DNA from: Vibrio alginolyticus NBRC 15630 = ATCC 17749 | Lineage (GTDB): Bacteria; Pseudomonadota; Gammaproteobacteria; Enterobacterales; Vibrionaceae | Length of the DNA: 32,000 nt | Reading direction: 5' to 3' | Assembly (NCBI RefSeq): GCF_000354175.2 | Contig: NC_022349.1 | Coordinates: 540,001-572,000, forward strand | Shown here: piece by piece, positions 5,033-27,912 of the stretch | Position numbering within the stretch: position 1 is the first letter of the stretch | How the letters are laid out: each line of letters starts with the position of its first letter | Program-made: the position numbers and the translations under genes | Notes under the pieces: generated by a model | Told to the model about the DNA's origin: nothing | Database searches by the model: none | What the model saw: only the letters and a program-made list of their open reading frames with translations

Positions 5033-5051
5033 ATAAGTTTGGAGGTGAAGT

Positions 5052-5270: not shown

Positions 5271-5329
5271 TGTATTCACTGCGGCATTTTTCATTTCTTC
5301 ATACGCTGCAGTATTCGTTCAAATTTATT

Positions 5330-5357: not shown

Positions 5358-5440
5358 TTGACCTGCCTATAATTTACTAATGAAGTTCAGCTGAGCAAAT
5401 TATCACTAACACTTAGCAATTCTCTCAATGATCTTGTTGA

Positions 5441-5459
5441 TGTAATGATAATGACAACG
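5441..5459. promoter_or_regulatory. Candidate Fur box upstream of the fhuC-like gene
   Basis: TGTAATGATAATGACAACG matches 12/19 positions of GATAATGATAATCATTATC, including a contiguous TAATGATAAT core. It lies about 135 bp upstream of the first gene of an iron-siderophore ABC operon. Confidence 0.45.
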
Positions 5460-5594
5460 GTTTGCATTTGTATCTTTGTTGTTATATAAAACCTCCCTTA
5501 TTAATCGTTCTGTTGAATAAGAACGGCAAACGTGATCAACGAATGAGAGCTTTGAATAACTGTTATTCGTAAATGGCTATTAGGTGAAGTAGGG

Positions 5595-6359
5595 ATGTTG
5601 GAAGCTAAAGCACTCCAGTTTGAGATTGAAGGCAAGTCATTGCTAAAAGCGTTTGATGTGACATTTGAACCCGGAAAAACATACGCCCTTGTTGGACACA
5701 ATGGTTCAGGAAAATCCACATTGTTAAAGTTGCTGGCACAGCAACAGCAATACACAGCTGGTGACGTGGTTCTGCATGGAACGAGCATTAACGATCTCTC
5801 AGCGAAAAAATTCGCCCAACACATTGCCTACTTGCCTCAGCATCTTCCGGTGACCGACAGTATTTTAGGTCGAGATTTAGTCGGTTTTGGTCGTTATCCA
5901 TGGCATGGTTTACTTGGACGTTTGAGTAAGAAAGATCACGACATTGTTGAAGAAGCAATGGCGATGACAGGCACACTAAAATACGCAGATCGCTTAGTGG
6001 ACACGTTATCTGGAGGAGAGCGTCAACGTGTGTGGCTAGCTATGCTGTTAGCCCAAAAAACCGAGTATTTGCTTCTTGATGAGCCTTTGTCTGCGCTAGA
6101 TATCAGCCATCAAGTCGATATGTTGAAGCTTATCTCTAAACTCAGTCAAGAACTGGGCTTGGGCGTTATCATCGTATTACACGACATCAACTTGGCTGCA
6201 CGATTTTGCGACTACATCGTTGCATTACATCAAGGTGATTTGATTGCACAAGGCAATGTTGAACAGGTGTTTACTGAACCTAAGTTGAGGGACATATATG
6301 GGATAGAGATGATGATCTCTGACCACCCTGCGGGTTATCCGGTGGCGATGCCAAGCTAA
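5595..6359 (+). CDS. fhuC: Iron(III)-siderophore ABC transporter ATP-binding protein (FhuC-like)
   Basis: 254 aa. Walker A GHNGSGKST, signature LSGGERQR, Walker B LLLLDEP. It is followed by a binding protein and a fused double permease, as in fhuCDB. Confidence 0.8.
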   Translation: MLEAKALQFEIEGKSLLKAFDVTFEPGKTYALVGHNGSGKSTLLKLLAQQQQYTAGDVVLHGTSINDLSAKKFAQHIAYLPQHLPVTDSILGRDLVGFGRYPWHGLLGRLSKKDHDIVEEAMAMTGTLKYADRLVDTLSGGERQRVWLAMLLAQKTEYLLLDEPLSALDISHQVDMLKLISKLSQELGLGVIIVLHDINLAARFCDYIVALHQGDLIAQGNVEQVFTEPKLRDIYGIEMMISDHPAGYPVAMPS

Positions 6360-6370
6360 AGGTTGGAATA

Positions 6371-7255
6371 ATGAGCAGTACAAACACTCGACTTAAACAT
6401 TTCTCTTTCGCTCTCTCACTTAGTGCGCTTTTGGTCAGTTCTTTTCAAGCACTAGCTGACGCATCACCTCGGGTGATGTCGGTTGATTGGACACAAACTG
6501 AAACGATGTTGGCTTTAGGGGTCGTACCTGTAGGCGTTGCTCAAGGGCAAGATTACGATGCTTGGGTAAAATCGCCACCGTTACCACCTCAAACGAAGGA
6601 TGTAGGGTTAAGAACTCAACCCAATATAGAGCGCATTTACGAGCTCAGACCTGATCGTATTTTTATTGCCCCGTACTTTTCCTCAATGAAGCATCGCTTA
6701 GTTGATATCGCCCCGGTTACCACCATTGACTTATATGAAAGCGGAATTACGGATTGGTCGGTACTTACCAGTTTCACTCGGAGGTTTGGTGAAGAGCTGG
6801 GAAGAGAGGCGGAAGCAGAGGCGCTTATCCAACAATATGAAAAACGTTTGTCTTTATTAAAACAGCGTATAAATAAAGGCCAGCCGCCACTACTAATGAT
6901 TCAGTTTATGGATACAAAGCACGTACGTGTTTTTGGTCAAAATAGTCTTTACTCTCAGGCTATCGAAAAGATTGGGCTGAGTAATGCATGGAATGAAAAG
7001 ACGAATAGCTGGGGCTTTAGCCTAGTTGGCATCGACAAGTTAGCTGGCATAAAAGCTCAAATTGTTATCGTAGAGCCATTACCTTACGGTGGAGCGGAGC
7101 AGCTCTCTCAAGACCCATTTTGGCAATATGTTGTTCAACAATCTGGTGAAAAGGTCATGCAAGTCGCGCCCGTTTGGAGTTTTGGTTCTATGCCTTCAGC
7201 CCTCCGTTTCGCAGAGTTAGTTACGGCGAGTAAGGTCGAGGAGTTAACACAATGA
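6371..7255 (+). CDS. fhuD: Periplasmic iron-siderophore binding protein (FhuD-like, class III SBP)
   Basis: 294 aa with a signal peptide (…[12 protein letters not shown]). Its position between the ATPase and the permease supports the call. Its stop overlaps the next start (ATGA at 7252-7255). Confidence 0.7.
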
Positions 7256-9228
7256 AAACGATGCCTTTAAGCTTTGTGGTGTTACTTTCGGCATTTACCT
7301 TTTCTATTGGTGCTTTCCAATTGTACCAAGTAAGCTCATTTTCGTTAGCTCTAAGCAGTTTATGGGAGCCTAACTTTCAATCTATCGATTCTGTTTTACT
7401 TCACTTTAGCTGGTGGCCTCGAGTCTTCACCACGATTATATCTGGTGCTGGATTAGCGGTTGCTGGGGTATTGATGCAGCAAGTGCTGCGTAACCCTCTC
7501 GCTTCACCCACGACACTTGGTGTGGCGAGCGGTTCAAGTTTTGCTTTGATGTTAGCTACGCTATTCGCACCTTGGATGTTGGATATCGCGCCTAATTTGG
7601 TTGCTCTCATCGGCGGTGTGATATCGATGGGGTTGGTGATGCTGTTGTCATGGCGACGAGCGTTATCTCCAACGGTTGTCGTCGTTTCTGGGTTAGTGAT
7701 AAACCTGTACTTTGCATCATTAAGTACGGTTATTCTGATGATGAATACCGAAAAGCTGAATGGGTTAATGATATGGGGAGCCGGTTCGCTTGTTCAGAGT
7801 GGATGGGGAGATTTCTCGTATCTTGCCCCTCGAATCGCACTTGCTACGGTCGTTGCATTTGTGATTGCAAAGCCGTTAAGTCTGTTGGAACTCTCCGAGC
7901 AAGGTGCCAAGAGTTTAGGTGTCTCGCTAGCTAAGTTGCGTTTTGTCTGTCTTGGGCTTGCGGTGTTAATCACTTCTTGGGTGGTTTCTGCCGTAGGAAT
8001 CATCGGTTTCATCGGGTTAGCGGCGCCAGCGATTACTCGATTGATAGGTATCAATAAAATCCAGCATAAGCTTTGGGTATCAATGCTGATTGGTGCCATG
8101 TTATTGACTTTAACCGATTTGGTTATTCAGCAACTGCCAGGGATAATGGCGAGTTTTATACCAACGGGAGCAGCAACCGCTGCACTGGGCGCTCCGCTAC
8201 TGTTATGGCTGTTACCTCGTTTATCACAAAAGACGCAGGGCCATACTCAAACAGTGTTAACTCGACACCGTCAACATGTTTATAAGCTAAACCCTAAAGC
8301 GATCTCATTGGCGTTGATCGGCACGTTAATTTCTGTTGTTCTTTTTGCCACGGTTGCTGTGCAAAATGAAGGGTGGACAAATTTATTTGCTAGCCAAAAT
8401 TGGATTTTTTTGGAATGGCGCGCACCTAGATTATTTGCAGCAGCAATTGCGGGGGCAATGTTAGCGATTGCTGGAACCATGATTCAACGCCTAAGTGGAA
8501 ACCCAATGGCAAGTCCTGAAGTGATCGGTATCAGTTCAGGGACAGCGATGGGATTGATCATCGCGATGTTTACTGGGTTTGGTTCGTCAATTTTCACTCT
8601 TTCTCTAGGCGGGCTCGTAGGCGCATTAGCGACGGTATTAGTCATTGTGCTGCTAAACCGTAAGTCAGGCTTTCAGCCGGAGCGTATTTTGTTGACTGGT
8701 ATTGCAATAACCGCACTGATGAATGCAATACAGAGCTTTATTCTAGCCACTGGTGACCCAAGAAGTTATCAAGCATTGGCTTGGTTGTCTGGGTCTACCT
8801 ACTATGTTTCGGTTGAAACGTTACTCCCATTGTCCTTATCTGCGCTTGTCTTTATAGGGTTGAGTTTTCTCTGCGTAAGATGGCTAGATATTCTTCCTGT
8901 CGGTGCCGCTTCCTCTAAAGCACTTGGAATTCGAGTTGATCGTTCACGCGCAATACTGCTTCTTTTAGTTGCTTGTCTCACGGTCAGTGCGACATTGGTT
9001 GTTGGCCCGATTAGCTTTGTTGGGTTGTTGGCTCCGCATTTAGCTCGCTTATTTGGTTTTAACAAAGCGTCACAACACATGTTATGCGCCGCGATACTGG
9101 GGGCAGGGGTGATGTTGTTGGCTGATTGGTTGGGACGACAGATCCTTTACCCGCAAGAAATACCAACAGGGCTTATGGCGTCTCTCATTGGCGGTTTGTA
9201 TTTAATGTGGGGTTTACGCCGCTTATAG
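7252..9228 (+). CDS. fhuB: Fused double-domain FecCD-type permease (FhuB-like)
   Basis: 658 aa, about 20 TM segments, with two internally repeated FecCD-like halves (…[15 protein letters not shown]… and …[15 protein letters not shown]…). This size and architecture are characteristic of FhuB. Confidence 0.8.
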
Positions 9229-9268
9229 AAATGAGCTAAGCCTCAACCAAGAAAGTACTTATACAAAT

Positions 9269-9307
9269 AAGCACTCGTAGTGGCATTCGTAACCTATGCG
9301 AGTGCTT
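9269..9307 (+). terminator. Imperfect hairpin after the fhuB-like gene (possible weak terminator or attenuator)
   Basis: AAGCACTCG / CGAGTGCTT form a 9-bp stem around a 21-nt loop with an inner TAG/CTA pairing, followed by only TTT. Confidence 0.3.
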
Positions 9308-9428
9308 TATGCAAAACCTCTGGTTTGTCTTTTACGGAAACAACTGGCGATGCCGTAACTCGCTTTTCTTTCAGCGGTCGCTGAAGTCATGAAGGGTTGG
9401 TTTGGCTGCCGACAAAAAGGAGAAGAAT

Positions 9429-11651
9429 ATGACTCGGCAGTTTATGCTGACACCAACGTCGATGGCGGTTGTATTAGCTTTATCAACGCCAAATGTCTTG
9501 GCTCAGGAAGATGAAAATATAGTTGTGATTGGACAGCAGCAAGACAGTGCAGTTGGTCCTGATTTTAGTTATCTCGGAGCGAAGAGTCGGGCAGCGACGA
9601 AAACTGATATTGCTATCAATGAGACTCCAAGAGCGGTGTCTGTTGTTACGCGAGAGCAAATGGATGATCGTGCCTCTATTAGCATTTCTGACGCACTACA
9701 GTACACACCAAGCATTCAAACTAATTATTTCGGCGAAGATAACAAGCAAGATTGGTTTATTATTCGTGGTTTTAAACAGGCGAACAGTGGGTTGTATCAA
9801 GATGGTACCCGTTTATATTCTTCTGGCTTCTATAGTTGGCAAATAGATCCGTTTGCGTTAGAGAGGGTTGAAGTTTTACGTGGTGCAGCGTCTGTTCTTT
9901 ATGGGCAAAACCCTCCTGGTGGGGTCATCAATGTTGTCAGTAAGCGACCTCAATTTGATGGGGGGTCAGGACTTGTATCTTTGGAGTACGGTTCTGAAGA
10001 CCGTAAACAACTTTCTCTTGACGTAAACTCTGAGGTGAGTGAGCAGCTAGCTTTCCGCTTTCAAGGGTTAGCGAGAAAAAATGGGACGAGAATTAGTGGG
10101 GTAGAAGCAGAGCGCATTCTTCTCTCTCCATCGATGACGTACAAATTTAATGAGGCGTCTGAAATTACCTTTCTAACGAGCTATCAAAAAGACGACTCAG
10201 ATCCTTATCTGCAATTTTTGCCAGTTGAAGGAACGTTAACGCCAAACAAAAATGGAAAGATCAGTGATAGTTTAGCGATAGGCAATCCTAACTGGGAGAC
10301 GTTTGAGCGTGAGCAGGTGTCTTTAGGCTATGAGTTTTCTCATGCATTTAATGATACCACTTCATTTATTCAAGCAGCTCGTTACAGCGAAATGGATGTT
10401 AAGCTAAGACAAATGTATTCGTACGTTTACTCGGCTGATGTGCCTGCGTTGGGGCCGGTTTTGGACCCATCAAATGAACGCAAAACCATACTTCGGGGTG
10501 CTTCAACAGAAGATGGGTCATCTGATGCTTTTAATATCGATAATCGTTTGATGCACCAAGTAAATTGGGGAAGTGTTGAGCATAACTTGATGTTGGGCAT
10601 AGATTTTCAAATGATCAGTATCGATGGTAAAGATTTTGCCAATGACCCTATAGTTGCTAATGGTAATGCATTATTAAACACACCAATGGGAGCTTTGCCC
10701 GATCCTAGGTTTAATGTATTTAATCCTACTTATTCGGATAACATAATGTTACTCGATCCGAATACGCTACAACCATTGAGCGAAACCGATAAGCAAAGAA
10801 CGAAAATCGATAATCAGCAGCTCGGCGTCTACTTTCAAGATCATATGCTGATCAACGATAAATGGGCGATGTTATTGGCCGCACGTTACGACGATACAAG
10901 TAATGAAGTACATAATGTTACCACGGGTGCTCGCACGAAAGTCGATAATGGAGAGTGGACGTTTAGCGTGGGAACGGCTTATATTTCTGATTCTGGCTTC
11001 ACGCCATACTTTAGTTACTCTCAGTACTTTGATCCAATTATTCAAGAAGACAGCAATGGTAAGCCAGCGAAGCCTGAAAGCGGTGATCAATTTGAAATCG
11101 GTATGAAATACCAACCGGATTCATTTGATGGTTATTTCAATATTGCAACGTATCGGGCAACAAAAGAAAACTTGGCTCGTATCTACTTGAGTGAATTAAC
11201 GCAAATAGGAAAAATAGAAAATAACGGCGTTGAGTTTGAAGCTGTAGCTAATGTGACACCATCCTTAACATTGATCGGGAACATTGCGTACGTTGATGCA
11301 GAGATAAAAGAAGACATCAATAAGGCATGGGTTGGCAAAACACCTTCCCAAGTGGCTAATACCGTATCATCAGCTTGGGCACATTATCGTTTCTTTGATG
11401 GACCTCTTGATGGCTTTGCTGTTGGCTTAGGCGCGCGCTATACAGGTGAGTCATACGGAGACAATGAAGAGAGACTAAAAGTACCAAGTTATTTCTTAAT
11501 GGATGCGACGGTCAGTTATCGAATCGGCGACTACAAGTTACAAGTCGCAGCTAAAAACATCGCGGATAAAAAGTACATAGCGACATGTGATGGCTTTTGT
11601 TGGTATGGCGACCGACAAAATGTTATTGCAAGTTTAACTTACGACTGGTGA
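9429..11651 (+). CDS. TonB-dependent siderophore receptor
   Basis: The ATG at 9429 has an AAGGAG SD; the TTG at 9402 in the ORF track is less likely. Signal peptide …LSTPNVLAQ, TonB-box-like ENIVVIG, plug motifs (ETPRAVSVVTREQMDDR, RGF…G, VEVLRGAASVLYG), and a beta-barrel C-terminus ending …SLTYDW. Confidence 0.85.
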   Translation: MTRQFMLTPTSMAVVLALSTPNVLAQEDENIVVIGQQQDSAVGPDFSYLGAKSRAATKTDIAINETPRAVSVVTREQMDDRASISISDALQYTPSIQTNYFGEDNKQDWFIIRGFKQANSGLYQDGTRLYSSGFYSWQIDPFALERVEVLRGAASVLYGQNPPGGVINVVSKRPQFDGGSGLVSLEYGSEDRKQLSLDVNSEVSEQLAFRFQGLARKNGTRISGVEAERILLSPSMTYKFNEASEITFLTSYQKDDSDPYLQFLPVEGTLTPNKNGKISDSLAIGNPNWETFEREQVSLGYEFSHAFNDTTSFIQAARYSEMDVKLRQMYSYVYSADVPALGPVLDPSNERKTILRGASTEDGSSDAFNIDNRLMHQVNWGSVEHNLMLGIDFQMISIDGKDFANDPIVANGNALLNTPMGALPDPRFNVFNPTYSDNIMLLDPNTLQPLSETDKQRTKIDNQQLGVYFQDHMLINDKWAMLLAARYDDTSNEVHNVTTGARTKVDNGEWTFSVGTAYISDSGFTPYFSYSQYFDPIIQEDSNGKPAKPESGDQFEIGMKYQPDSFDGYFNIATYRATKENLARIYLSELTQIGKIENNGVEFEAVANVTPSLTLIGNIAYVDAEIKEDINKAWVGKTPSQVANTVSSAWAHYRFFDGPLDGFAVGLGARYTGESYGDNEERLKVPSYFLMDATVSYRIGDYKLQVAAKNIADKKYIATCDGFCWYGDRQNVIASLTYDW

Positions 11652-12492: not shown

Positions 12493-14268
12493 TCACACCG
12501 CTTCTTCGAGTTGCTTGGTGTCTTCTTCAATCTGTTGTAGGTGTCGGTTTGCTTGCTGTAACTGATACATTTGAGCATAACGACCATTTTGCGTTAAGAG
12601 TGCTTTGTGTGTGCCTTTCTCGACTAACTCCCCATGATGAAGAACAATGATTTGGTCTGCATCTAGGATAGTTGACAGCCGATGAGCAATAACAACGAGC
12701 GTCATGTCTTGTCTGAGTACCGCCAAGCTCTTTTGGATTAAAGCCTCTGTTCCTGAGTCAATATTTGCGGTTGCTTCATCTAATATCAATATCTTAGGTT
12801 TTACCACAAGCACACGTGCTAACGCCAAAAGCTGTTTCTGACCCGCAGATAAATTAGTTTCGCCTTGACCTAACTGCGTGTCTAGCCCGTTAGGGTAACG
12901 ATGAATTTGTTCTGCCAAACCTACCTTGTCTAACGCATCCCATATTTGATTGTCATCAACCGCCCGACTGAGAGAGATGTTTTCTCTGACTGAAGCAGGG
13001 AGAATATGTGGATCTTGTTGGACCATTGCCACATCTTTGCGAAGTACGTCTTTCCCTAATGTTTTAAGTGGACGACCATCTATGAGCAGTTCGCCACATT
13101 GCGTTGGATAAAAGCCCATTAACAGTGACGCTAATGTGCTTTTACCGCTTCCTGTATGCCCGACAAGCGCGATAAAGTCTTGGTGGTTGGCCTTCAACGA
13201 AATGTCTTTTAGGACGTCCTGTTTACCATCGTAGCTAAATGTGAGATCTCTAAGTTCGATAGCACCTGACCTTAATGGTTGATGATTGTCCCCGTAAGTT
13301 TGTTCTTTCGCGTCAATTAATTCAAAAACACGTTCGCTTGATACTAACGCTTGCTGAAGTAGAGCAAGTTGCTGAGTCATCTCAATTAGTGGTTCAGTAA
13401 CTCGCGCAAGATAACTGATAAATGCATACAGTACCCCCACACCAATCAACTCAATACCATTAAAACCAAAGATCGCAACCAAGCAAAGCAACGCAAGACC
13501 AGCGAGTAAGTCCATTAATGGTCTTAGCAGATAGCCGTTTAGCCGAATCACTCGTTTAGATGCCACCAGATGCTCTGCGGTTAGCTCGTTGAACTGTTTA
13601 TTAAAACGCTCTTCTTGTTGCATTAATTGAATGACACTCATCCCTTGAATGGATTCACTCAGATTCGCATTTATATCGGTCAATAGGTCACGCATCTTTC
13701 GGTAGCTTTCTGTACTTAGCTGCTTAAACAAGTACATAAAGCCGATGACGATCGGCAGCAATACAAGCACAACGAGTGTGAGCTTCCAGCTCATGAAAAA
13801 CATAACGCCAAGCATTACGACAATCATGACCACGTTTTTCACCACGGTCGCGATCAAAAGCTCATAAAATTGCTGTAAAGATTCCGTATCGTTGGTGATT
13901 CGCGACACCAATTTTCCAGCAGGAGTGTAATCAAACGCAGATAACGGCTGCTTAATCACGCCAGAAAATACTTGCTTACGAATCGCTTTGATCGTGTTAG
14001 CCGCGACAATGCTAAATTGCAATGACTGAAAATACTGGAATGTTGCCGATACGATCTGAAGAGCGATATAACCTACTGCTAGCGAAATCAGAACACTTTG
14101 TGAATAGTCACCTTTAGCGATGTGCTCATCAATGAAATATTGAATCAACCAAGGGCCGCCGGCGCTAGCTAACGCTGCAATAAACAGCAAGGCGAGTCCT
14201 TTAATCATTGGCTTTGGTTGAGATAATGGGTAAGACATTAACCGTTTAAACGTGCTGGTCTGGTTCAT
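12493..14268 (-). CDS. ABC exporter half-transporter (TMD-NBD), MdlB-like, second subunit of a heterodimeric pair
   Basis: 591 aa with six N-terminal TM helices. Walker A GHTGSGKST, signature LSAGQKQLLALARV, Walker B ILILDEAT. The start lies 3 nt after the stop of the upstream subunit (TAATGAATG). Confidence 0.85.
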   Translation of the reverse strand: MNQTSTFKRLMSYPLSQPKPMIKGLALLFIAALASAGGPWLIQYFIDEHIAKGDYSQSVLISLAVGYIALQIVSATFQYFQSLQFSIVAANTIKAIRKQVFSGVIKQPLSAFDYTPAGKLVSRITNDTESLQQFYELLIATVVKNVVMIVVMLGVMFFMSWKLTLVVLVLLPIVIGFMYLFKQLSTESYRKMRDLLTDINANLSESIQGMSVIQLMQQEERFNKQFNELTAEHLVASKRVIRLNGYLLRPLMDLLAGLALLCLVAIFGFNGIELIGVGVLYAFISYLARVTEPLIEMTQQLALLQQALVSSERVFELIDAKEQTYGDNHQPLRSGAIELRDLTFSYDGKQDVLKDISLKANHQDFIALVGHTGSGKSTLASLLMGFYPTQCGELLIDGRPLKTLGKDVLRKDVAMVQQDPHILPASVRENISLSRAVDDNQIWDALDKVGLAEQIHRYPNGLDTQLGQGETNLSAGQKQLLALARVLVVKPKILILDEATANIDSGTEALIQKSLAVLRQDMTLVVIAHRLSTILDADQIIVLHHGELVEKGTHKALLTQNGRYAQMYQLQQANRHLQQIEEDTKQLEEAV

Positions 14269-14271
14269 TCA

Positions 14272-16011
14272 TTATTCCTCCATCGCCTGCTCTAGTTTCT
14301 GATACTCGAACATCTCGGCGTACCAGCCTTTATGCGCTAATAACGCGCTATGTTGCCCACGTTCAGTAATGTGTCCGTGATTCAATACAATGATCTCGTC
14401 TGCTGCTTCCAAAGCGGTGAGGCGGTGCGCAATAACGATTAGGGCCTGATTACGGTAGTATGTTTCCAAATTCTTAAGGATTTGATGTTCGGTCCGTCCA
14501 TCAACAGCGGAAAGTGCATCGTCCAAAACCAACACTTGAGCATTCAGCAGCATAGCGCGTGCTATCGCAATACGTTGTTTTTGCCCGCCGGAGAGTGTAA
14601 TGCCTTTTTCACCAACTTCTGTTTGATAGCCTTCAGGAAACTTTTCAATATCGTCATGTATACAGGCTAACTTTGCTGCTCTATAGACTTCTTCTTTCTC
14701 TGCATTAGGGTTGCCTAAGGCAATATTTTCGAAGATAGATTTGGAGAATAGAAACGGACTTTGGTTAACGACAGCAAAACGGTTGCGCCACTGCGGTAGT
14801 AGGGCATCCTTGATCTCGACATCCCCGAATTTAATTGAGCCGTTTTCTAAATCATGTTGACGCAAAAGTAGTGTTAACAGGGTCGATTTTCCGCTTCCTA
14901 CCGGCCCTGCAACTCCCAACATTTTTCCGGGTTCAAGTTCGATGTTTACTTCCGTCAAAGCGGGCGGTAAATCACTAGACCAGTGGAAATCGTCGATATC
15001 AATTTTTAACGGAAGTGGTTTATTTTCTATTGGCTTATTACCACTGATAATTTCTGGCTTTTCATCAAAGATCTCTTGTAGTCGGTTCCATGCAGCTGAG
15101 CCTCTTTCTAAAATGTTAAATAGGAATGCGAATGCCAGCATCGGCCATATCATCAACCCTAAATACATCGTAAATGCGGTCAGATCACCAAGCGTGATCT
15201 CACCTTTATCAACAAGGTAAGCACCAGCAGCGACACTAAGAAGGAAAGAAAGACCGATGGTTAACTGAATTGCCGGGTCAAATCTAGCATCGACTCTTGC
15301 AACAGCGATGTTCTTTTCGCCAGTATCATCCACAACCTCTTCAAAACGTTGCTGCTCTTGGTTTTCTAATCCGAAAGCACGCAGCATTCGCACGCCATTA
15401 AGTGACTCTTGTGTCATGTCTGACATGGTAGAAAAGGCTTCCTGAGCGACACGAAAGCGTTGATGTAGGATGCGCACAATAAAGAAGATGATGATGGCAA
15501 GAAATGGCATTGGAAGAAGCGCCATTACGGTGAGCTTCCAGCTTACTTGCGTTATCATAATGATTAAAACCGCAATACCAGTGATCAAAGAGTCTGCGGC
15601 GGTTAAAACCCCTTCGCCGGCTGTCATAACGATATTACGCACATCATTAGTGCCACGAGCCATCAGATCCCCCGTCTTGTAACGTTCAAAAAAACGAGGT
15701 GGCTGTGTCGATAAATGCCTATATAGACGGTTACGTAGAATGGTCCCGAGCTCCCAGCTTGCGCCGAAAAGCCAAATTCGCCATAAGATGCGACACCCAT
15801 AAATGGTAAAGATCAGTACAGTTAACCCTGACAGCCATAGAATCAGCGTATTTGTATCTAAAGTGTTGTCTACGACGCCGTCAACTATGATGCCAACTGC
15901 TTTGGGCGGAACAAGCTGTAGTGCTGATATCACAGCGAAAAGCAGAATGGATCCGACATAGTGCCTCCACTTTTGTTGGAAATACCAACGTAGCTGCCAG
16001 AATATTCTCAT
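14272..16011 (-). CDS. ABC exporter half-transporter (TMD-NBD), MdlA-like, first subunit
   Basis: 579 aa. Walker A GPVGSGKST, signature LSGGQKQRIAIARA, Walker B VLVLDDALS. Tightly coupled to the downstream paralogue. Confidence 0.85.
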   Translation of the reverse strand: MRIFWQLRWYFQQKWRHYVGSILLFAVISALQLVPPKAVGIIVDGVVDNTLDTNTLILWLSGLTVLIFTIYGCRILWRIWLFGASWELGTILRNRLYRHLSTQPPRFFERYKTGDLMARGTNDVRNIVMTAGEGVLTAADSLITGIAVLIIMITQVSWKLTVMALLPMPFLAIIIFFIVRILHQRFRVAQEAFSTMSDMTQESLNGVRMLRAFGLENQEQQRFEEVVDDTGEKNIAVARVDARFDPAIQLTIGLSFLLSVAAGAYLVDKGEITLGDLTAFTMYLGLMIWPMLAFAFLFNILERGSAAWNRLQEIFDEKPEIISGNKPIENKPLPLKIDIDDFHWSSDLPPALTEVNIELEPGKMLGVAGPVGSGKSTLLTLLLRQHDLENGSIKFGDVEIKDALLPQWRNRFAVVNQSPFLFSKSIFENIALGNPNAEKEEVYRAAKLACIHDDIEKFPEGYQTEVGEKGITLSGGQKQRIAIARAMLLNAQVLVLDDALSAVDGRTEHQILKNLETYYRNQALIVIAHRLTALEAADEIIVLNHGHITERGQHSALLAHKGWYAEMFEYQKLEQAMEE

Positions 16012-21775: not shown

Positions 21776-21861
21776 AAAAGAAGTTAGTCCTAGTTTATGT
21801 CGATATTTGCGAAACATACTACGCTTAAGTGGCTGAATCGTAAATTGATGGAGTGTCACAA

Positions 21862-22056
21862 ATGAAGAAGGTCACATTAACGTTTGTCGGGGAAGGTTCG
21901 GATCGTATTGCGGAAAAATTCTATGCGTGGATGACGGACGGTGGGTTGGAAGACAGCATGATTGAGAATTTATCTGACCGTGAAATCTCAGTGGTCGGCA
22001 TCAGTGATATGGATAATGAAACGCGTGATGTGGTGATCAATACGGAAATGAATTAA
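21862..22056 (+). CDS. Small acidic hypothetical protein (64 aa)
   Basis: ATG at 21862 with GGAG upstream, followed by a strong terminator. The sequence MKKVTLTFVGEGSDRIAEKFYAWMTDGGLEDSMIENL… has no family I recognise. Confidence 0.45.
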   Translation: MKKVTLTFVGEGSDRIAEKFYAWMTDGGLEDSMIENLSDREISVVGISDMDNETRDVVINTEMN

Positions 22057-22093
22057 CGAGTCGACTTTCGTCAGCAAGCAGAATCAGATAAAA

Positions 22094-22119
22094 CAAAGCC
22101 CTTCACGAGAAGGGCTTTG
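22094..22119. terminator. Bidirectional rho-independent terminator (ends the small + ORF and the minus-strand Hsp70 operon)
   Basis: CAAAGCCCTTC-ACGA-GAAGGGCTTTG is a perfect 11-bp stem. TTGCGTTT follows on the + strand and TTTTATC follows on the - strand. Confidence 0.8.
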
Positions 22120-22141
22120 TTGCGTTTATGAGCATGGGAGC

Positions 22142-24967
22142 TTAGTTATTTACCAGCGTCAGACCGCTTGGCAGTGCATCACCGAAGATACGCTTCGATT
22201 CGCTCTCAGATAGCTCTTTGACTTCTTCAACCAATGATACCCAAGATTCAGGTACCTTGCTTTGCTTCAACTTAGCCAGTACCTGCTCACGGTAGTCGTC
22301 TGAGATATCGAATAGGCGGTCGCCTGTCTTACGACAAATCATTACGGCTGCGAAAGCGATCATTGGCTCTTTCTGCCAGTTCTGCTCTAACAGCTTAGGC
22401 AACCACTGTTCCGCTTGTTCACGAGGAACGACGTTATGCTGACTGCCATATAAAGGCGTACGTGATGCCAAGCGACCCATTGCCCACCAGTGTGCTTGTT
22501 CGAACTGGTTATGGTTGATGGCTTTGCTCAAGAACCACGTAGCCAATAGAACTTTGTCTTCGACTTCTAGATGCTCTAGAGAGGCAGACAAGCGAACCAT
22601 CGACTCGTAACCCATGTCTTGCGCTGCTTTGGCGGATTGTGGGTTTTTCATCGCGCCAGGGTGTAGGTATTTCGCGATGTCCGCCAAGATGGTCTCTTGC
22701 TGCTCTTGGCTTAAACCACCGGCAATGCGACGCCAGAATACCCACCAGTCAGTCCAACCTTGATGGTTCTTAAACTGAATGTTTTGCTGGTAGAGACCCC
22801 AAACTTGCTCAATGCGCCATGAGTCGGTTGGATCGCCAAAGCCCGGACGCAGTGCAAAACCTGCCAAACGAAGCCAGTTTTTCTCGTGTTGTTCAGAACG
22901 ACGGCGACGCTTACGACCTTGTGCAAAGGTATCGAACAGTTGACGTAGGGTAGTGAAATCCCATTCATCACGTTTGCCCAGTTTCTTCTCAAGATCTTTG
23001 GCTAAGGTTTTGATCTCTTTACTTTCCGCGCTTTTCTTATTACCGCTGTAAAGGCGAGCGATCAGCTCCTTACATTCGTTCAGTTTAGGGTGAAGCTTAA
23101 CTTGCTCGCTGTCATCGGTTTGCTTATTACGAACTTCGAATTCTAGCTCCCAACGTTTGCTATCGTCTTCTGCGCTGACACATTCCATCTTAAGTGTGCC
23201 GACTTCAGTCAACTGACACGCCAGTTGCACTTCTACACGCTCTTTCTGGTTGGCTTGTAGCTCGGCGCCTTCACCTTCAAGGGTGGTGATATAAGGCGGA
23301 AGAGGAGCAAACAAGTCCGGATCAACGTCAACCATCACACCGTTTTGAATAGCGGTGTTATTGGTTAAGGTGTCGTGGGTAGAAGTCAGCAGGTTAAAGC
23401 GAACGGGTTCACCTAGGGTAAGCGAGAAGCGACGACCACTTAAGCGGATCTCGTGTCCTTCTTCTGTACCTTTTGCAAGTAAACAAAGCGCTTTGCCCAT
23501 CTTGTTCTTTTCTTGAAGATGCAAGAAGTAAGAACGCGCTGCACCACCACCAATTTTTAGCTGTGCACCACGACGTGCTTTACCAAACGCAACAGCACCT
23601 AGTGCAACAGACCAATCTGGATGTGGGTTGTCTAATACCGTAACCGGAGCGCCGCGCCAATCGGACAGTAGGGTAGTGACTCGCTCAGTAACAAGTTCAC
23701 TATTGAACACACCACCGTTAAGTAGCAAACCGACTGGCATGGCATTTTGTTTGTCGTCTTCAATGCCAAGAGCGGCACGAGCAACTTGCTGATGCTGAGT
23801 TAAGAACTCGGCTACGTGTTTGCTCACCGCTGGGTCAGCAACGTATGGAAGACCAAACTCGACAACCGCGCTGCGACGTTTGTCTGGTACTTCACTGAAA
23901 TCAGAAAGCGGGAAGAAGCCATCTAAAGCGATTTGGTGCACTTCTTGTTTGCTCAGCCCAATACTCTTTGTTCCGCCAAGAAGTTTCGAGCCGCTGCCCA
24001 GCATGGTGATTTTCACTTCTTCAGGTGCATTCGCTGAAAGCAGGTTTTCTTTCGCTTTACGCGTTTGCTGAATCAACTTAGTCAGGCTTGCGGCAGTGAG
24101 CTTCTTACTTTGTTCCCCTTTATTTTGAGAAAGGCGGCTCTCCGCAAGGTGTGCTAATGCTAAATCGAGGTTATCACCACCAAGCATCAAGTGTTCGCCA
24201 ACGCCAATACGATCAAGGGCTAGTTCATCTTGAGAAGAGAAACTGGCTTCAATCAAGCTTAAGTCGGTAGTACCACCGCCCACATCACACACCAGAATCA
24301 GCGGTAACTCTTTGAGTTCATCAGCTGCGGTTTGCTGGTGGCGTGCGTACCAGTCGTAACATACGGCTTGTGGTTCTTCGAGCAGGACGATTTTTTTCAA
24401 ACCTGCCAACTCAGCGGCTTCAAGCGTGAGCTTACGAGCGGTTTCATCGAACGACGCTGGAACGGTCACAACCACATCTTGGTCTTCTAACTTATTGCTA
24501 GGATGACGGTAGTTCCATGCTTGACGAATATGGTTGAGGTAGCTTGCGCTGGCAATGACGGGAGAAACTTTATCTACGTCTTGCGCACCAGCCCAAGGAA
24601 GAATGTCTGAGCTACGATCCACGGCTTGGTGAGATAGCCAGCTTTTTGCACTGGATACCTGACGTCCTTCCACCTTAGCGCCTAACTCACGAGCCCATTC
24701 ACCCACGATCACATTACTAATGTCACCAGAGACAGGTTCGTTTTCCCAAGGGAGTGTTAGGTCAGAAGGGGAGATTTGACCAACCGCAGGGTGATAGCGG
24801 AAAGAGGGCAGCAATGGTTTACGAACCACTTCACCCGGACCAATCAATTGGTCGATGTCGAATAGGGATACTTCGGATTGTTCAAGGTTGTCGGTAATTT
24901 CACAATACGCCACCACAGTGTTTGTGGTGCCAAGGTCAATACCAACAAGAAAACGAGGAGATGCCAT
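22142..24967 (-). CDS. Non-canonical Hsp70-family ATPase 'B' (941 aa) with a ~320-aa Trp-rich alpha-helical C-terminal extension
   Basis: Actin/Hsp70-fold motifs: VGIDLGTTNT (phosphate 1), VTVPASFD, LLEEPQA, CDVGGGTTDLSL (phosphate 2), LGGDNLDLAL, LLNGGV (adenosine). It is paralogous to the upstream 654-aa protein. The tail (residues ~620-941) contains RKRRRR and 14 Trp by my count. Confidence 0.85.
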   Translation of the reverse strand: MASPRFLVGIDLGTTNTVVAYCEITDNLEQSEVSLFDIDQLIGPGEVVRKPLLPSFRYHPAVGQISPSDLTLPWENEPVSGDISNVIVGEWARELGAKVEGRQVSSAKSWLSHQAVDRSSDILPWAGAQDVDKVSPVIASASYLNHIRQAWNYRHPSNKLEDQDVVVTVPASFDETARKLTLEAAELAGLKKIVLLEEPQAVCYDWYARHQQTAADELKELPLILVCDVGGGTTDLSLIEASFSSQDELALDRIGVGEHLMLGGDNLDLALAHLAESRLSQNKGEQSKKLTAASLTKLIQQTRKAKENLLSANAPEEVKITMLGSGSKLLGGTKSIGLSKQEVHQIALDGFFPLSDFSEVPDKRRSAVVEFGLPYVADPAVSKHVAEFLTQHQQVARAALGIEDDKQNAMPVGLLLNGGVFNSELVTERVTTLLSDWRGAPVTVLDNPHPDWSVALGAVAFGKARRGAQLKIGGGAARSYFLHLQEKNKMGKALCLLAKGTEEGHEIRLSGRRFSLTLGEPVRFNLLTSTHDTLTNNTAIQNGVMVDVDPDLFAPLPPYITTLEGEGAELQANQKERVEVQLACQLTEVGTLKMECVSAEDDSKRWELEFEVRNKQTDDSEQVKLHPKLNECKELIARLYSGNKKSAESKEIKTLAKDLEKKLGKRDEWDFTTLRQLFDTFAQGRKRRRRSEQHEKNWLRLAGFALRPGFGDPTDSWRIEQVWGLYQQNIQFKNHQGWTDWWVFWRRIAGGLSQEQQETILADIAKYLHPGAMKNPQSAKAAQDMGYESMVRLSASLEHLEVEDKVLLATWFLSKAINHNQFEQAHWWAMGRLASRTPLYGSQHNVVPREQAEQWLPKLLEQNWQKEPMIAFAAVMICRKTGDRLFDISDDYREQVLAKLKQSKVPESWVSLVEEVKELSESESKRIFGDALPSGLTLVNN

Positions 24968-24984
24968 ACAAACCTTCGTGTATT

Positions 24985-25011
24985 TAAAAACGGCACCCGA
25001 TTGGATGCCGT
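24985..25011 (-). terminator. Intercistronic terminator-like hairpin between the two Hsp70 genes (possible attenuator)
   Basis: On the coding (minus) strand, ACGGCATCC-AATC-GGGTGCCGT forms a 9-bp stem with one U.G pair, followed by TTTTAAAT. It sits within the 56-nt gap between stop 25024 and start 24967. Confidence 0.5.
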
Positions 25012-25023
25012 TTGATTTTCTAT

Positions 25024-26988
25024 TTATTCTTCTTCGTTTGAGTTGCTTTTCGCGTCTTCGCGCACATCGAACTCAACATGCCATTTTTGACCGTTATCAG
25101 CGGCAATGGCTTCTAAGTAAAGCGTACCAAGCTCTGTCACGCGAGAAGCTAGGGTTACCGGAACCACTTCACCTTCACGGCGACCTTCAGATACAGGCAG
25201 CGTTACTTGGATTTCTGGTAGCTCTTCAAGCTCTTCTGGTGCCCAGTAGTCTAGGTGAGTACCCGCTAGGTCATCACGACGAACGGTTGAGCCGAAGAAT
25301 TGGAAGTTAACCGGCTGACCGATGATCAAACCAAACTCTTGGCTTGGTACGTCAACGCTTGAACCTTCTTCCATACCAAATGGTGCAACACAAAGTGCTT
25401 CCATTGGAGGCGCCATGCCCGGAATCGCTGGCATCGCACTTTCGATACCCACGTAGTACGCCGAAGCAATACCACCGCGGATACGAACGCCTTGACCACG
25501 ACGCACAGAGCCGTAGTAAGCCGCTCCGCTAGCAACTGCAAGGTCTAGATCCACACCTGTTAGGCGTTTTGCCATTTCAGCATCTGCTTCAATTAGCCAT
25601 TCGTTGATCGTGTCTTCTAGACGAGTTGCTAGAAGTTTCGATTTCAGAACACCACCGTTGAATAGGATTGCTGTTGGCTTGATGAAGTCAGCTGATTGGG
25701 CTGCATCCGAACCTGGCATACCAGGCATGTTAGCGAATGGGTTGAAATCTTGAGCTGCTGCTTCTGCGCCATTTCCTGAAGCAGAAAGAGCATTGGCTTG
25801 CTTAGACAAGAACGCTGCAATGTGACGAGTAATGCCTGCATCTTGTGCGTAAGGCAGACCCATTTGCGTTAGTGCACCACGGTTACGTTGAACAGGGTGA
25901 TCGGTAATCGCAACTTGAGGGAAGAAACCGTCAACTAATGTTTGTTGTACTTCTTCTTGAGTCAGTTCAGTTTTCAGCGTTGCACCAAGCAGTTTAGAAC
26001 CGCGACTTGGTACAACGATTGGCACTGACTGAAGCTCGCTGTCGTTCAATAGCGCTTCTTTAGCGTCACGACATGCGTGCGTCATCGCCTGAACTTGCCA
26101 TGGCTGTAGCTCTTTGCCTTCTTGCGCTAGCTTCATCTTCAAGCGGTACGCAAGTGCAAGGTCCATGTTGTCACCGCCAAGTAGGATATGTTCACCTACC
26201 GCGATACGGTTCAGAGTTAGGTTGCCTTCGTCTTCTGTTACTTCAACTAAAGAAAGGTCGGTTGTACCACCACCGATATCGACCACAAGCACGATGTCGC
26301 CAACTTCAACTTCGTCGCGCCATTTGTCGTTGCTGTTATCAATCCAGTTGTAAAGCGCAGCTTGAGGCTCTTCTAGAAGCGTTAGGTGCACAAAACCAAC
26401 GTTGCGTGCAGCTTCGGCTGTCAGGTCTCGAGCCGCAGGATCGAAAGAAGCTGGAACCGTAATGGTAACGTCTTGATCGGCAAGGTTGTGATTTGGATTG
26501 GTGTGATTCCAAGCGTCTTTTAGGTGCTCTAGGTAAAGCTCTGTCGCGCGAAGAGGGGATACTTTTTCCACTTCTTCTGGGCTACCTGCTGGTAAGAAGG
26601 CATCACGACGATTCACACCAGCGTGGCAAAGCCAAGATTTCGCACTTGCAACAAGGCGAATCGGTGTTTTTGAACCTAGGTTACGTGCAATAGCACCAAC
26701 CAGAGCTTTTGGCTCGCTCGACCACGGAAGAACGCGTGATTGCGGGTTCATTTCGTGTTCGTGTGGTTGGTAAAGGAAAGAGCCCAATTGGCTGCGAGTC
26801 TCTACCGTGCCCGGCGCAGTAAGTTGCGGGATAGGCATCACTTCAACGCGAGCGTCTTCGTCGTGAGTATCAACAAAAGACATGACGCAGTGTGTTGTAC
26901 CTAAGTCGATACCAACACTGAATTTAGGCGTCTGTTGAGTTTCAACAGACACTTCTCGAGAATGGTTTTCTTGGTTCATGTGTTCCAT
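25024..26988 (-). CDS. Non-canonical Hsp70-family ATPase 'A' (654 aa)
   Basis: VGIDLGTTHC, ITVPASFD, LLEEPQA, VDIGGGTTDLSL, LGGDNMDLAL, LFNGGV. No DnaK-type lid or EEVD tail. The start codon overlaps the upstream stop (TAATG at 26986-26990). Confidence 0.85.
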   Translation of the reverse strand: MEHMNQENHSREVSVETQQTPKFSVGIDLGTTHCVMSFVDTHDEDARVEVMPIPQLTAPGTVETRSQLGSFLYQPHEHEMNPQSRVLPWSSEPKALVGAIARNLGSKTPIRLVASAKSWLCHAGVNRRDAFLPAGSPEEVEKVSPLRATELYLEHLKDAWNHTNPNHNLADQDVTITVPASFDPAARDLTAEAARNVGFVHLTLLEEPQAALYNWIDNSNDKWRDEVEVGDIVLVVDIGGGTTDLSLVEVTEDEGNLTLNRIAVGEHILLGGDNMDLALAYRLKMKLAQEGKELQPWQVQAMTHACRDAKEALLNDSELQSVPIVVPSRGSKLLGATLKTELTQEEVQQTLVDGFFPQVAITDHPVQRNRGALTQMGLPYAQDAGITRHIAAFLSKQANALSASGNGAEAAAQDFNPFANMPGMPGSDAAQSADFIKPTAILFNGGVLKSKLLATRLEDTINEWLIEADAEMAKRLTGVDLDLAVASGAAYYGSVRRGQGVRIRGGIASAYYVGIESAMPAIPGMAPPMEALCVAPFGMEEGSSVDVPSQEFGLIIGQPVNFQFFGSTVRRDDLAGTHLDYWAPEELEELPEIQVTLPVSEGRREGEVVPVTLASRVTELGTLYLEAIAADNGQKWHVEFDVREDAKSNSNEEE

Positions 26989-27398
26989 TACAGCTCAACC
27001 TCAGCTGGAGCGATCACAGATGCGTCGTAGTTCTCAGCCAGTTTAGGCAACGTCATTGATGTTGCCTTCCAACCTTTGTGAACTAGCGTGCCGTTAAATG
27101 GCGCGCTGCCTGTTACGTTGCCAGTTAGGCGGATTTCTTGTGGGTTGAAGCCTTCTTCAACCGTAATGCGAGTTTCTTCGTCTTCGTTACGAACGTGCGC
27201 TAGCGTCACGTAGTCGTTCAGTACTTTCTGACCGCCAGTGTGGATTACGCGAGCGGCTGCGCCTACTTCTTCATCAGAGAATGACGTTAGGTCTTCTTTT
27301 AGGAAGTCAATCAGGCGAGCTTCTTGTTGCATGATAGAAAGCAGCTGCATTGCAGAGTCCGTTGACGCGGTTGCAAGTTTTGATTCAACTTCCACCAC
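26988..27398 (-). CDS. DUF2760-like domain protein (as drawn: 136 aa from GTG 27398); probably the C-terminal part of a longer membrane-anchored protein
   Basis: …LQLLSIMQQEARLIDFLKEDLTSFSDEEVGAAARVIH…FNGTLVHKGWKATSMTLPKLAE…VIAPAEVEL matches my recollection of the DUF2760 family. Translationally coupled to Hsp70-A. See the frameshift finding. Confidence 0.7.
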   Translation of the reverse strand: MVEVESKLATASTDSAMQLLSIMQQEARLIDFLKEDLTSFSDEEVGAAARVIHTGGQKVLNDYVTLAHVRNEDEETRITVEEGFNPQEIRLTGNVTGSAPFNGTLVHKGWKATSMTLPKLAENYDASVIAPAEVEL

Positions 27399-27621
27399 TT
27401 TTTTCGACGACTTTCTCTACTTCCACTACTTTTTCTACTTCAACGATCTTCTCAACTGGTTTCTCAACCTCGACGATTTTCTCGACTGGTTTTTCTACCA
27501 CTTTCTCGACCACTTTTGATTTGCGCGACACTGCAACTAGAAGAAGCAAAACGCTCGATGCGGTTAGGCCAGCGTGAAGCATATCGAACGTTTGAGGAAT
27601 TAGGTTCAAATCAATGTTCAT
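27385..27621 (-). CDS. Small membrane-anchor ORF (78 aa): one TM helix plus a (V/I)VEK-type charged repeat; likely the N-terminal part of the DUF2760 protein, displaced by 1 nt
   Basis: MNIDLNLIPQTFDMLHAGLTASSVLLLLVAVSRKSK is followed by VVEKVVEKPVEKIVEVEKPVEKIVEVEKVVEVEKVVEK and then SGGS-stop. It overlaps the next ORF by 14 nt in a different frame. Confidence 0.6.
   Translation of the reverse strand: MNIDLNLIPQTFDMLHAGLTASSVLLLLVAVSRKSKVVEKVVEKPVEKIVEVEKPVEKIVEVEKVVEVEKVVEKSGGS
27390..27513 (-). repeat. In-frame tandem coding repeat (12-18 nt sub-units; 30-nt unit KPVEKIVEVE x2) encoding the V/I-E-K(-P) spacer
   Basis: Direct reading gives GTCGAGAAAATCGTCGAGGTTGAGAAACCA followed by GTTGAGAAGATCGTTGAAGTAGAAAAAGTA, and so on. 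The periodicity also creates the artefactual + strand 'FSTSTTFSTST' ORFs. Confidence 0.8.
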
Positions 27622-27912
27622 GACGTTTTTTCTCTTTCTATTGATTTATTGGTGCTCAGTATTGGCTCATATTTGTTCACTAAAACGATCGTCTTTGCGA
27701 TCTTGCACCAAGTTTAGACATTAAAATGATGACGGATGGTAGCATATTCAAGGCTTAAGGCTGTAATAATTCGTGACTATACCGTACGAACAGCGTGAAA
27801 AATCGACGATCAGACTCCCCAATATAGGTTGTTGCTTGATGTTTGTGCATTGCTAACGCAGTATTTCAATAGATCCCGAAGTTTAACTTACGGAAGTATC
27901 AAAAATTACGAT

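Follow-up and report, generated by a model that had tools for sequence, protein, structure and literature searches.

A widespread three-gene module coupling a DUF2760 protein with two paralogous Hsp70-type proteins, described from Vibrio alginolyticus

This study concerns a set of minus-strand genes in Vibrio alginolyticus NBRC 15630 = ATCC 17749. The DNA analyzed, here called the window, is a stretch of 32,000 nucleotides (nt; NC_022349.1, positions 540,001-572,000), and coordinates given without a locus label are positions within it. The genes make up a three-gene operon, D-A-B, in which D (26988..27621) encodes a protein of the family DUF2760, A (25024..26988) an Hsp70-like protein of 654 amino acids (aa), and B (22142..24967) an Hsp70-like protein of 941 aa that also carries the domain DUF3731 and is 100% identical to the database entry 'Hsp70 family protein [Vibrio]'. 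An earlier note, made from the sequence alone, had described four co-directional genes. All four of its open reading frames (ORFs) are in the ORF list at the same coordinates (27621-27385, 27398-26988, 26988-25024 and 24967-22142, all on the minus strand), but they represent three genes rather than four. The stop codon of the DUF2760 ORF overlaps the start codon of A as TAATG, as had been read from the window sequence. With this correction, and with DUF3731 added, the earlier observation is real and well beyond chance. We regard D-A-B as a variant of the Hsp70 theme and not as a new kind of system or molecule.

The reduction from four genes to three comes from D. The first ORF (78 aa), previously taken for a separate transmembrane (TM) anchor, is the N-terminus of the DUF2760 protein encoded by the second (136 aa). 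The VVEKVVEVE (V/I-E-K) repeat of the 78-aa ORF does not stop at the 14 nt that this ORF shares with the DUF2760 ORF but carries on in the other frame, and removal in silico of one A from positions 27399-27404 yields a single protein of 210 aa. Aligned along its entire length with DUF2760 proteins of the Vibrio harveyi/alginolyticus group, which are intact and also have 210 aa, it is 99% identical. Three assemblies with an identical B have an intact 210-aa ORF as the upstream gene. DNA alignment showed that the A6 homopolymer of the window (27399..27404, minus strand) is A5 at loci L083 and L084, the stretch being otherwise identical, and a gene for the 78-aa product was found in no other assembly. 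ORF1 and ORF2 are thus one gene, split by a one-base insertion that reflects a private mutation or, alternatively, an error in sequencing the homopolymer. The family assignment of the second ORF was borne out by Pfam (DUF2760, PF10816; 183.7 bits, E=1.3e-54, profile positions 2-124 of 124, cut-off 25 bits), and the repaired protein scored 182.6 bits. Programmed frameshifting at the A-run was considered as the primary reading and rejected, since in sister strains the run is A5 and the frame is intact. Some +1 slippage of tRNA-Lys or RNA polymerase may still take place at a low level on A6 and could restore some full-length D. Unless it does so, or the extra A is a sequencing error, the membrane tether described below is missing in the window strain.

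A and B are, on the basis of their sequences, paralogous ATPases of the Hsp70 type. Both match Pfam HSP70 (PF00012, cut-off 20.6 bits) at 61.9 and 61.5 bits, respectively (E ~5e-17), although they cover only positions 2-300 and 64-278 of the 599-position profile, which is part of the ATPase domain. They align with each other at 37% identity over ~650 aa (E=2e-126), whereas either protein aligns with solved DnaK/Hsp70 structures only over ~150 aa of the ATPase domain (E ~1e-10 to 1e-8); the claim that they resemble each other more than DnaK is therefore upheld, and the shared sequence blocks listed in support of it are visible in the A-B alignment. In NCBIfam the models for HscA and DnaK scored best, reaching roughly 10% of the cut-offs set for them. 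The canonical DnaK equivalogs NF001413 and TIGR02350 (cut-offs 648 and 822) gave 51.7 and 48.9 bits for A and 58.1 and 56.2 bits for B, and the HscA models TIGR01991 and NF003520 (cut-offs 708 and 620) gave 77-82 bits for both proteins, all below threshold.

The residues needed for ATP turnover in DnaK have counterparts in both proteins: D8 corresponds to D28 in A and D11 in B, K70 to K117 and K108 (confirmed by profile alignment to DnaK), E171 to E207 and E198, D194 to D237 and D228, T199 to T242 and T233, and D201 to D244 and D235. None of the six varies in diverse sets of 38 A-type and 57 B-type sequences, in line with the retention of the phosphate and EPxA motifs noted earlier, and A and B are predicted to be ATPase-competent since they keep these catalytic residues. 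The first homolog search with B had returned only proteins of 99-100% identity, and a profile of diverse representatives was used for alignment depth. Partial matches to MreB/Mbl (PF06723, cut-off 27) were also obtained, at 25.5 bits for A and 27.8 bits for B over ~115 of 327 profile positions. Taken with the membrane anchor of D, and with a likeness of the Vibrio D linker to the repeats of alveolins, which belong to the membrane skeletons of eukaryotes (Pfam IMCp, below cut-off at E=0.0023), these matches could suggest that A and B are actin/MreB-like polymerizing ATPases that form a membrane filament through D, and that the system is cytoskeletal rather than a chaperone. We consider this highly improbable: the HSP70 scores are more than double the MreB_Mbl scores, the MreB_Mbl matches cover only the common phosphate-binding core, the closest structural and sequence relatives are DnaK and HscA, the Hsp70-specific K70 and E171 equivalents are present, and a β-domain resembling Hsp70 substrate-binding domains (SBDs) follows the ATPase domain.

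The J-domain interface and the interdomain linker of DnaK, by contrast, are not retained. Among the J-contact residues of DnaK, R167 is replaced by T203 in A and V194 in B, N170 by E, and T173 by Q. At the position of the VLLLD linker of DnaK, A has IRGGI and B has KIGGG (manual register from a conserved GAA motif), and the motif is conserved in the families as R-I-x-G-G (R-I-R-G-G in A) or K-I-G-G-G (B). By alignment, then, A and B are without the J-contact arginine and the hydrophobic linker of DnaK.

The ATPase domain of A spans ~aa 20-495 and is followed by a β-domain (~aa 496-645). B has a β-domain at aa 479-610 (23138..23533, minus strand), which is all-β in an AlphaFold2 model, and then an all-α C-terminal domain at aa 629-938 (22154..23083, minus strand) of ~17 helices in the model. 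No domain had been named at the C-terminus of B in the earlier note; Pfam places DUF3731 there (PF12531, 'DNA-K related protein'; aa 691-938, 336 bits, E=1.8e-100, profile 1-248 of 248, cut-off 25), and the conserved columns of the all-α domain are rich in R and W. The model covered aa 455-941 of B, was built from 90 diverse sequences and had a mean pLDDT (predicted local distance difference test) of 81.7. Foldseek searches of the PDB with it gave no match at E <=0.001. The best matches (E 0.012-0.06, probability 0.8-1.0) fell into two groups, Hsp70 SBDs and ARM/HEAT solenoids. The β-domain matched the SBDs of BiP, DnaK and HscA and of human and Plasmodium Hsp70s (E 0.012-0.06, probability 0.8-0.98), and the α-domain matched designed armadillo proteins, importin-α, Armc8 and Ric-8A (E 0.015-0.03, probability 0.93-1.0). 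The C-terminal domain of B is accordingly modeled as an ARM/HEAT-like solenoid, and the post-ATPase segment as a β-sandwich with a weak resemblance, at fold level only, to the β-subdomain of Hsp70 SBDs (SBDβ).

Searches at the sequence level did not recover this resemblance. Pfam, NCBIfam, an A-family profile against the PDB and hhalign aligned the ATPase domain only and gave no SBD or lid; a relaxed Pfam scan of the isolated β-regions returned nothing, and when a β-domain profile of 114 sequences was compared with E. coli DnaK in hhalign, no relationship emerged (probability 1%; the DnaK sequence used agrees with the PDB alignment over residues 136-279). The spacing of the β-domain from the GAA motif is nonetheless the same as that of SBDβ strand 1 in DnaK, in a manual register. 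The description of A and B as having no canonical SBD or lid is fair on these results. The broader statement that they have no peptide-binding domain holds for sequence and profile searches, but is too strong given the weak Foldseek matches of the β-domain to SBDs.

Conserved synteny of a DUF2760 gene with two Hsp70 genes had been set beforehand as the key test of whether D, A and B belong together. The C-terminal half of B recovered 1,758 clusters at 50% identity, 560 of them at E <=1e-30, most being proteins of 900-980 aa with the same layout. The synteny scan took one genome per species and the best 80 of 245 confirmed matches. These 80 loci span the Gamma- and Betaproteobacteria, Myxococcota, Verrucomicrobiota, Lentisphaerae, Planctomycetota, Fibrobacteres, Desulfobacterota, Acidobacteriota, Chloroflexota, Binatia and Selenomonadaceae. 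At 67 of them, from about 12 phyla and referred to as informative, there was enough upstream sequence, and 53 of the 67 have D-A-B in this order on one strand, as do the window and Vibrio cholerae; carriers of the triad include V. cholerae, V. parahaemolyticus, V. vulnificus and Burkholderia cenocepacia. Two further informative loci have A-B. The synteny test thus came out strongly in favor of the triad. Overlap between genes also recurs: among 50 loci measured, the stop of D and the start of A share 4 nt at 21 loci and 1 nt at 9, and the stop of A shares 4 nt with the start of B at 10. When the neighboring ORFs of the 80 loci were clustered, no recurrent neighbor family was found beside the triad. 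As claimed earlier, there is no J-domain or nucleotide-exchange gene next to the module: Pfam and the neighboring ORFs showed no J-domain or GrpE gene in the window or its flanks, and none of the 80 loci has linked dnaK, dnaJ or grpE. Nearly all triad lineages among the best 80 of the 245 matches are two-membraned, including the Negativicute family Selenomonadaceae, and the same 80 include no Actinomycetota or classical monoderm Bacillota.

Natural fusions of A and B were also found. Three proteins of ~1,500 aa score as A-B fusions, and two of them were inspected at the level of single residues. In P0391 the junction is clean; that of P0392 (1,499 aa, Polyangiaceae) looks scrambled and may be an annotation artefact. 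The fusion loci L086 (3001-7611, 1,536 aa) and L087 (3001-7506, 1,501 aa) are on metagenome contigs, and a DUF2760 gene lies directly upstream at the loci of both P0391 and P0393. These natural fusions argue that A and B act in one complex. No D-B fusion was seen among unusually long B homologs, whose added length consists of insertions.

The module is chromosomal, belongs to the core genome and is non-mobile; it was found in 0 of 50,697 phage records and, among 72,556 plasmid records, in 10, most of which are megareplicons of the Burkholderia type, 0.5-3.5 Mb in size. This bears on a possible role in biological conflict. CnuD of type III CoCoNuT systems is described as an Hsp70-like protein with nucleotide-binding domain (NBD) and SBD plus HEAT-like repeats, found in a McrBC context and having degenerate ATPase motifs (PMC11090510). 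B fits the architectural part of that description, and in PADLOC-DB v2 A and B gave a weak partial match to the candidate PDC-M61B (E of 4e-7 and 5e-6), such that D-A-B might be an anti-phage or conflict system related to CnuD. We think there is very little chance of this. No known defense system was matched in PADLOC-DB and D had no match in it, no McrB/McrC, nuclease or other defense gene recurs nearby, the position in the core genome is stable across Vibrio, phages lack the module and plasmids very rarely carry it, and the ATPase motifs are intact here. The CoCoNuT supplement text searched contains no mention of DUF3731, DUF2760 or CnuD.

D itself follows a common plan in 37 diverse homologs, namely an N-terminal hydrophobic segment, a variable low-complexity linker, the DUF2760 core and a tail. 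In the window the N-terminal TM helix of D covers aa 14-32 (27526..27582, minus strand; MLHAGLTASSVLLLLVAVS, Kyte-Doolittle mean 1.89 over 19 aa). The residues before it include acidic but no basic ones, and it is followed by RKSK. Because of the acidic N-terminus and the RKSK after the helix, the positive-inside rule predicts that the C-terminal DUF2760 domain faces the cytoplasm; the charge pattern fits the orientation put forward in the earlier note. A TM-like N-terminal segment (Kyte-Doolittle mean >=1.6) is present in 16 of the 37 homologs, and the others have an F/R/L-rich segment, xFFxRLxLAFxxFFRxL, which we read by eye as a probable amphipathic helix. The linker (27410..27516, minus strand) is a low-complexity V/I-E-K repeat with tandem periods of 30, 12 and 9 nt. 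Its copy number differs among Vibrio species, giving D lengths of 184-210 aa; V/I-E-K repeats are typical of Vibrionaceae, and in other phyla the same place is taken by a P/A-rich stretch of 7-64 aa. The repeat (VEKPVEKIVEVEK...) resembles not only the EKIVEVP repeats of alveolins in the IMCp comparison above but also PfaA inter-ACP linkers (NCBIfam, E=1.3e-4); both likenesses are probably convergent low complexity. The DUF2760 domain (26994..27362, minus strand) covers the full length of PF10816. Thirteen residues of D are invariant in the 37 homologs (Q98, R102, D105, D116, G120, R124, G167, G177, H181, G183, W184, P192 and E207), and a profile of these proteins found no relative among PDB sequences (best E=0.23).

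The tail of D, PAEVEL (26991..27008, minus strand), is near-universal across phyla as (A)PAEVEL at the extreme C-terminus. It is kept at loci without an overlap between D and A (L040, L069 and L042), which indicates conservation at the protein level rather than a by-product of the ribosome-binding site of A, and it may be a docking motif. The tail could instead be what A and B act upon. In such a scheme D would stand to A/B as IscU does to HscA, a client or switch devoted to them. Its AEVEL tail, or another segment of D, would be held by the β-domain of A or B, and D, bound to the membrane and signaling or acting elsewhere, would change state with the ATP cycle. No linear element of D is more conserved than the tail, for which the AlphaFold2 model has low confidence, D is strictly co-inherited with A and B, the top NCBIfam matches of A and B are to HscA, if far below threshold, and the V. 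cholerae operon is under quorum sensing and not described as a classical heat-shock gene. However, Pfam, the PDB profile search and relaxed scans gave no recognizable effector or signaling domain in D, HscA needs the J-protein HscB, which has no equivalent at the locus, and the present data suit 'cofactor' as well as 'client'. We consider a client or switch role for D rather unlikely.

Candidate control elements lie at both ends of the operon. A conserved promoter-like block, CTTGAATATGCTACCATCC, with a -35-like TTGAAT, lies 113 nt upstream of the D start codon (27734..27752, minus strand). This 19-nt block is the sole strongly conserved element of the D-upstream intergenic region in four Vibrio species and is kept in all Vibrio loci examined. 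As a pattern it has a single occurrence in each Vibrio locus, always upstream of D and on the strand of D (window 1 observed vs. 0 expected), and written CTTGAATRTGNTANNATYC it is at 7709-7727 in L001, 4122-4140 in L003, 4181-4199 in L004 and 4300-4318 in L007. The block could be a sigma-70 promoter (TTGAAT, 17 nt, TATTTT-like, with a T-rich hexamer downstream) or a sigma-32-like one; in V. cholerae the sigma-32-like reading would be CTTGAA ... CCCCTATTT, and an extra ~165-180 nt separates the block from the start codon. At the other end, a Rho-independent terminator follows B (22087..22120, minus strand), with a 12-base-pair (bp) G+C-rich stem and then UUUUAU (-22 kcal/mol, z=-6.6). The upstream block, the translational coupling of D and A and this strong terminator agree with the operon reading proposed at the outset.

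Between the stop codon of A and the ribosome-binding site of B there is a further stem-loop (24988..25013, minus strand; -17.4 kcal/mol, z=-5.6). The hairpin, CGGCAUCC-loop-GGRUGCCG, recurs at this position in V. cholerae, V. scophthalmi and Photobacterium aquae, with equivalents at L001 ~10544-10567, L003 ~6824-6845 and L009 ~6852-6873. The stem sequence varies between genera and the pairing is preserved; a U-run after the hairpin is present in the window and Photobacterium and absent in V. cholerae. It could be an attenuator or a stabilizer that sets the A:B ratio. An Rfam search of the region gave no matches, this hairpin included. Both hairpins, 22087-22120 and 24988-25013, were found by reading the sequence and confirmed by folding; a scan for consensus promoters and terminators gave counts not above those of shuffled sequence and missed both.

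The genes around the operon are ordinary ones. On one side are genes for a LysR protein, an ABM monooxygenase, a GFO/IDH oxidoreductase and a Tag-like glycosylase, and on the other side genes for CHASE-GGDEF, RNase T-like exonuclease, TerB and PhoD-like proteins. Farther away are siderophore-uptake and ABC-transporter genes: 5595-11651 and 12493-16011 hold a siderophore-type uptake cluster (ABC ATPase, periplasmic binding protein, a 658-aa fused double FecCD permease and a TonB-dependent receptor) and, next to it, two ABC exporter half-transporters; neither set is related to the operon. A 67-aa ORF at 21853-22056 (plus strand) is convergent with B, is an annotated gene of 64-67 aa in sister strains and has no Pfam match. 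The G+C content of the operon (22001-27000) is 0.49-0.50, and that of the flanks 0.41-0.47. In the divergent intergenic region, a 22-bp dyad, ATTGAAATACTGCGTTAGCAAT (27849-27870, minus strand), conceivably a LuxR/HapR site, lies ~45-65 nt upstream of the probable start codon of the CHASE-GGDEF gene; the HapR site of V. cholerae (L001 7509-7530) is at a similar distance from VC1376.

The V. cholerae orthologs, VC1375-VC1374-VC1373, form the same D-A-B operon with the same flanking genes. HapR binds the VC1375 promoter and activates it directly, an effect seen both in vivo and in vitro (PMC10328515). VC1374 came up among genes repressed within biofilms (PMC9201469), and its transcript was lower in a vc1639 sensor-kinase mutant (PMC5636140). 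In Myxococcus, B at a locus with D-A-B intact (L035) clusters, at 90% identity, with an Hsp70 from M. xanthus DK1622 that has 925 aa. Only one of the six Hsp70s characterized in DK1622, MXAN_5323, has 925 aa (PMC8265645), and from genus, cluster and length it is probably the M. xanthus B ortholog. Its deletion mutant is viable, sporulates less and recovers more slowly from H2O2. Heat shock lowered or left unchanged the expression of most hsp70 genes there, MXAN_5323 being one of the few exceptions, and the gene cannot complement dnaK in E. coli (PMC8265645). Another M. xanthus locus, stk, was considered as the same system and rejected: StkA is a 540-aa Hsp70 followed by SCP2-like and small PhaE-like proteins. 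The literature searched contained no paper on DUF2760 or DUF3731 and no published mechanism or partner analysis for VC1373-VC1375 or MXAN_5323, only expression data and mild phenotypes, and the earlier statement that no experimentally assigned function was known for the module can stand in that scope. All three families are already catalogued.

According to a 2026 review (FEBS J), bacterial DnaK derivatives are largely unexplored and may be Hsp110-like helpers of DnaK (PMC13580251). Applied here, this proposal would make A and B accessory co-chaperones of the canonical DnaK, acting as Hsp110-like exchange factors or disaggregation enhancers, with D serving only to localize them. The absence of a canonical lid and linker from A and B and the inability of MXAN_5323 to replace DnaK in E. 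coli would both suit such helpers. Helpers would not, however, be expected from the retention of every catalytic residue in both proteins, nor from the lack of linked dnaK, dnaJ or grpE in the 80 loci, and the co-inheritance and occasional fusion of A and B suggest that they are partners of each other rather than of DnaK. We hold this explanation to be improbable.

We tentatively favor, at slightly less than an even chance, a reading of D-A-B as a self-contained, membrane-tethered remodeling machine with two Hsp70s. A and B would be a heteromeric pair of active ATPases, comparable to paired paralogs such as Hsp70-Hsp110, a pairing suggested by their co-inheritance, translational coupling and natural fusions. 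D, as a dedicated cofactor, would hold the pair at the cytoplasmic face of the inner membrane, docking through its DUF2760 domain and/or its AEVEL tail, possibly on the basic, W/R-rich solenoid of B. The complex would use ATP to bind and remodel membrane-proximal protein clients, with an ATPase cycle that proceeds without J-domain stimulation, in keeping with the replaced J-contact residues and linker, and may be active under stationary-phase/high-density or oxidative conditions. The tethering of the A/B pair by D is an inference.

Several observations weigh against this remodeling machine. B occurs alone at 9 of the 67 informative loci, mostly in Planctomycetota, and with D but no A at 3, so the triad is not obligatory for B. 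The solitary B genes, with no D or A within 7 kilobases, are at L018, L049, L054, L055, L058, L066, L068, L073 and L076 (mostly Planctomycetota, Kuenenia); at L054 B comes directly after a SecA-like gene (4962-6896) and an outer-membrane efflux protein gene, and no second conserved partner was found in these loci, whose neighbors are unrelated (SecA-like, amidohydrolase, chalcone-isomerase-like and others). J-proteins or GrpE from unlinked genes could still act on A and B. The disruption of D in the window may mean that the module is dispensable in this strain, the known phenotypes of orthologs are mild and non-specific, and the AlphaFold2 model of D is poor (pLDDT 50.6, from a Vibrio-only alignment).

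A bolder version of the same machine can be drawn, which we regard as speculative and on balance unlikely. In it, D-A-B would be an autonomous Hsp70 motor with no J-protein or GrpE, in which A and B mutually regulate their nucleotide cycle as a heterodimer. DUF2760 would be a new class of Hsp70 cofactor that anchors the pair to the inner membrane, with the acidic AEVEL tail docking on the basic ARM-like DUF3731 solenoid much as EEVD docks on TPR co-chaperones in eukaryotes. Bacteria would then have, at their membrane, a counterpart of Hsp70-Hsp110 and Tim44-mtHsp70, which in Vibrio would be turned on when cell density is high.

A fixed three-gene module in at least a dozen phyla, consisting of two ATPase-competent Hsp70 paralogs and a dedicated membrane-anchored partner with no linked J-protein or exchange factor, is a clean and widespread example of non-canonical Hsp70s, and the locus offers a tractable entry into those of bacteria. 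Should the ATPase cycle indeed run without control by J-domain and GrpE, the accepted rules of how Hsp70s work would be widened, and the module would become a tractable bacterial model for paired Hsp70s such as Hsp70-Hsp110. HapR activation in V. cholerae ties it to quorum-sensing physiology.

Among known systems, D-A-B shares with DnaK-DnaJ-GrpE the Hsp70 ATPase domain, with all six catalytic equivalents in A and B, and a β-rich domain after it at the DnaK SBDβ spacing (in the manual register). It differs in the equivalog scores of A and B (49-58 bits against cut-offs of 648 and 822), in the lack of a helical lid and of R167, in the replacement of the VLLLD linker, and in having two paralogous ATPases and a membrane protein in place of linked dnaJ and grpE. 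With HscA-HscB-IscU it shares the highest-scoring NCBIfam models of A and B and, in idea, an Hsp70 devoted to a small partner from the same operon; unlike that system, A and B score 77-82 bits against cut-offs of 620-708, D-A-B has no HscB-type J-protein or Fe-S context, and the partner is a membrane-anchored DUF2760 protein.

CnuD and B have a like three-part architecture, compared by description only, whereas D-A-B is without McrBC and the ATPase motifs that are degenerate in CnuD are invariant in B (PMC11090510). The paired-paralog analogy, used elsewhere for bacterial DnaK derivatives (PMC13580251), is with Hsp70-Hsp110 and with Ssb-Ssz1 of the ribosome-associated complex, in which, as proposed for A and B, two diverged Hsp70-fold proteins form a heteromer and one has an enlarged C-terminus. 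There is no specific sequence relationship to these pairs, both A and B keep the catalytic residues, and the extension of B is modeled as an ARM/HEAT-like solenoid rather than an extended lid. The A-B heterodimer is suggested by co-inheritance and fusions only.

Hsp70s are tethered to membranes by Tim44 in the case of mtHsp70, by Sec63 in the case of BiP and, in E. coli, by DjlA and DjlC. D is unlike these proteins in that no search found a J-domain or Tim44 similarity in it. The likeness is one of concept: in each case a membrane-anchored partner concentrates an Hsp70 at a membrane face, which is the role proposed here for D.

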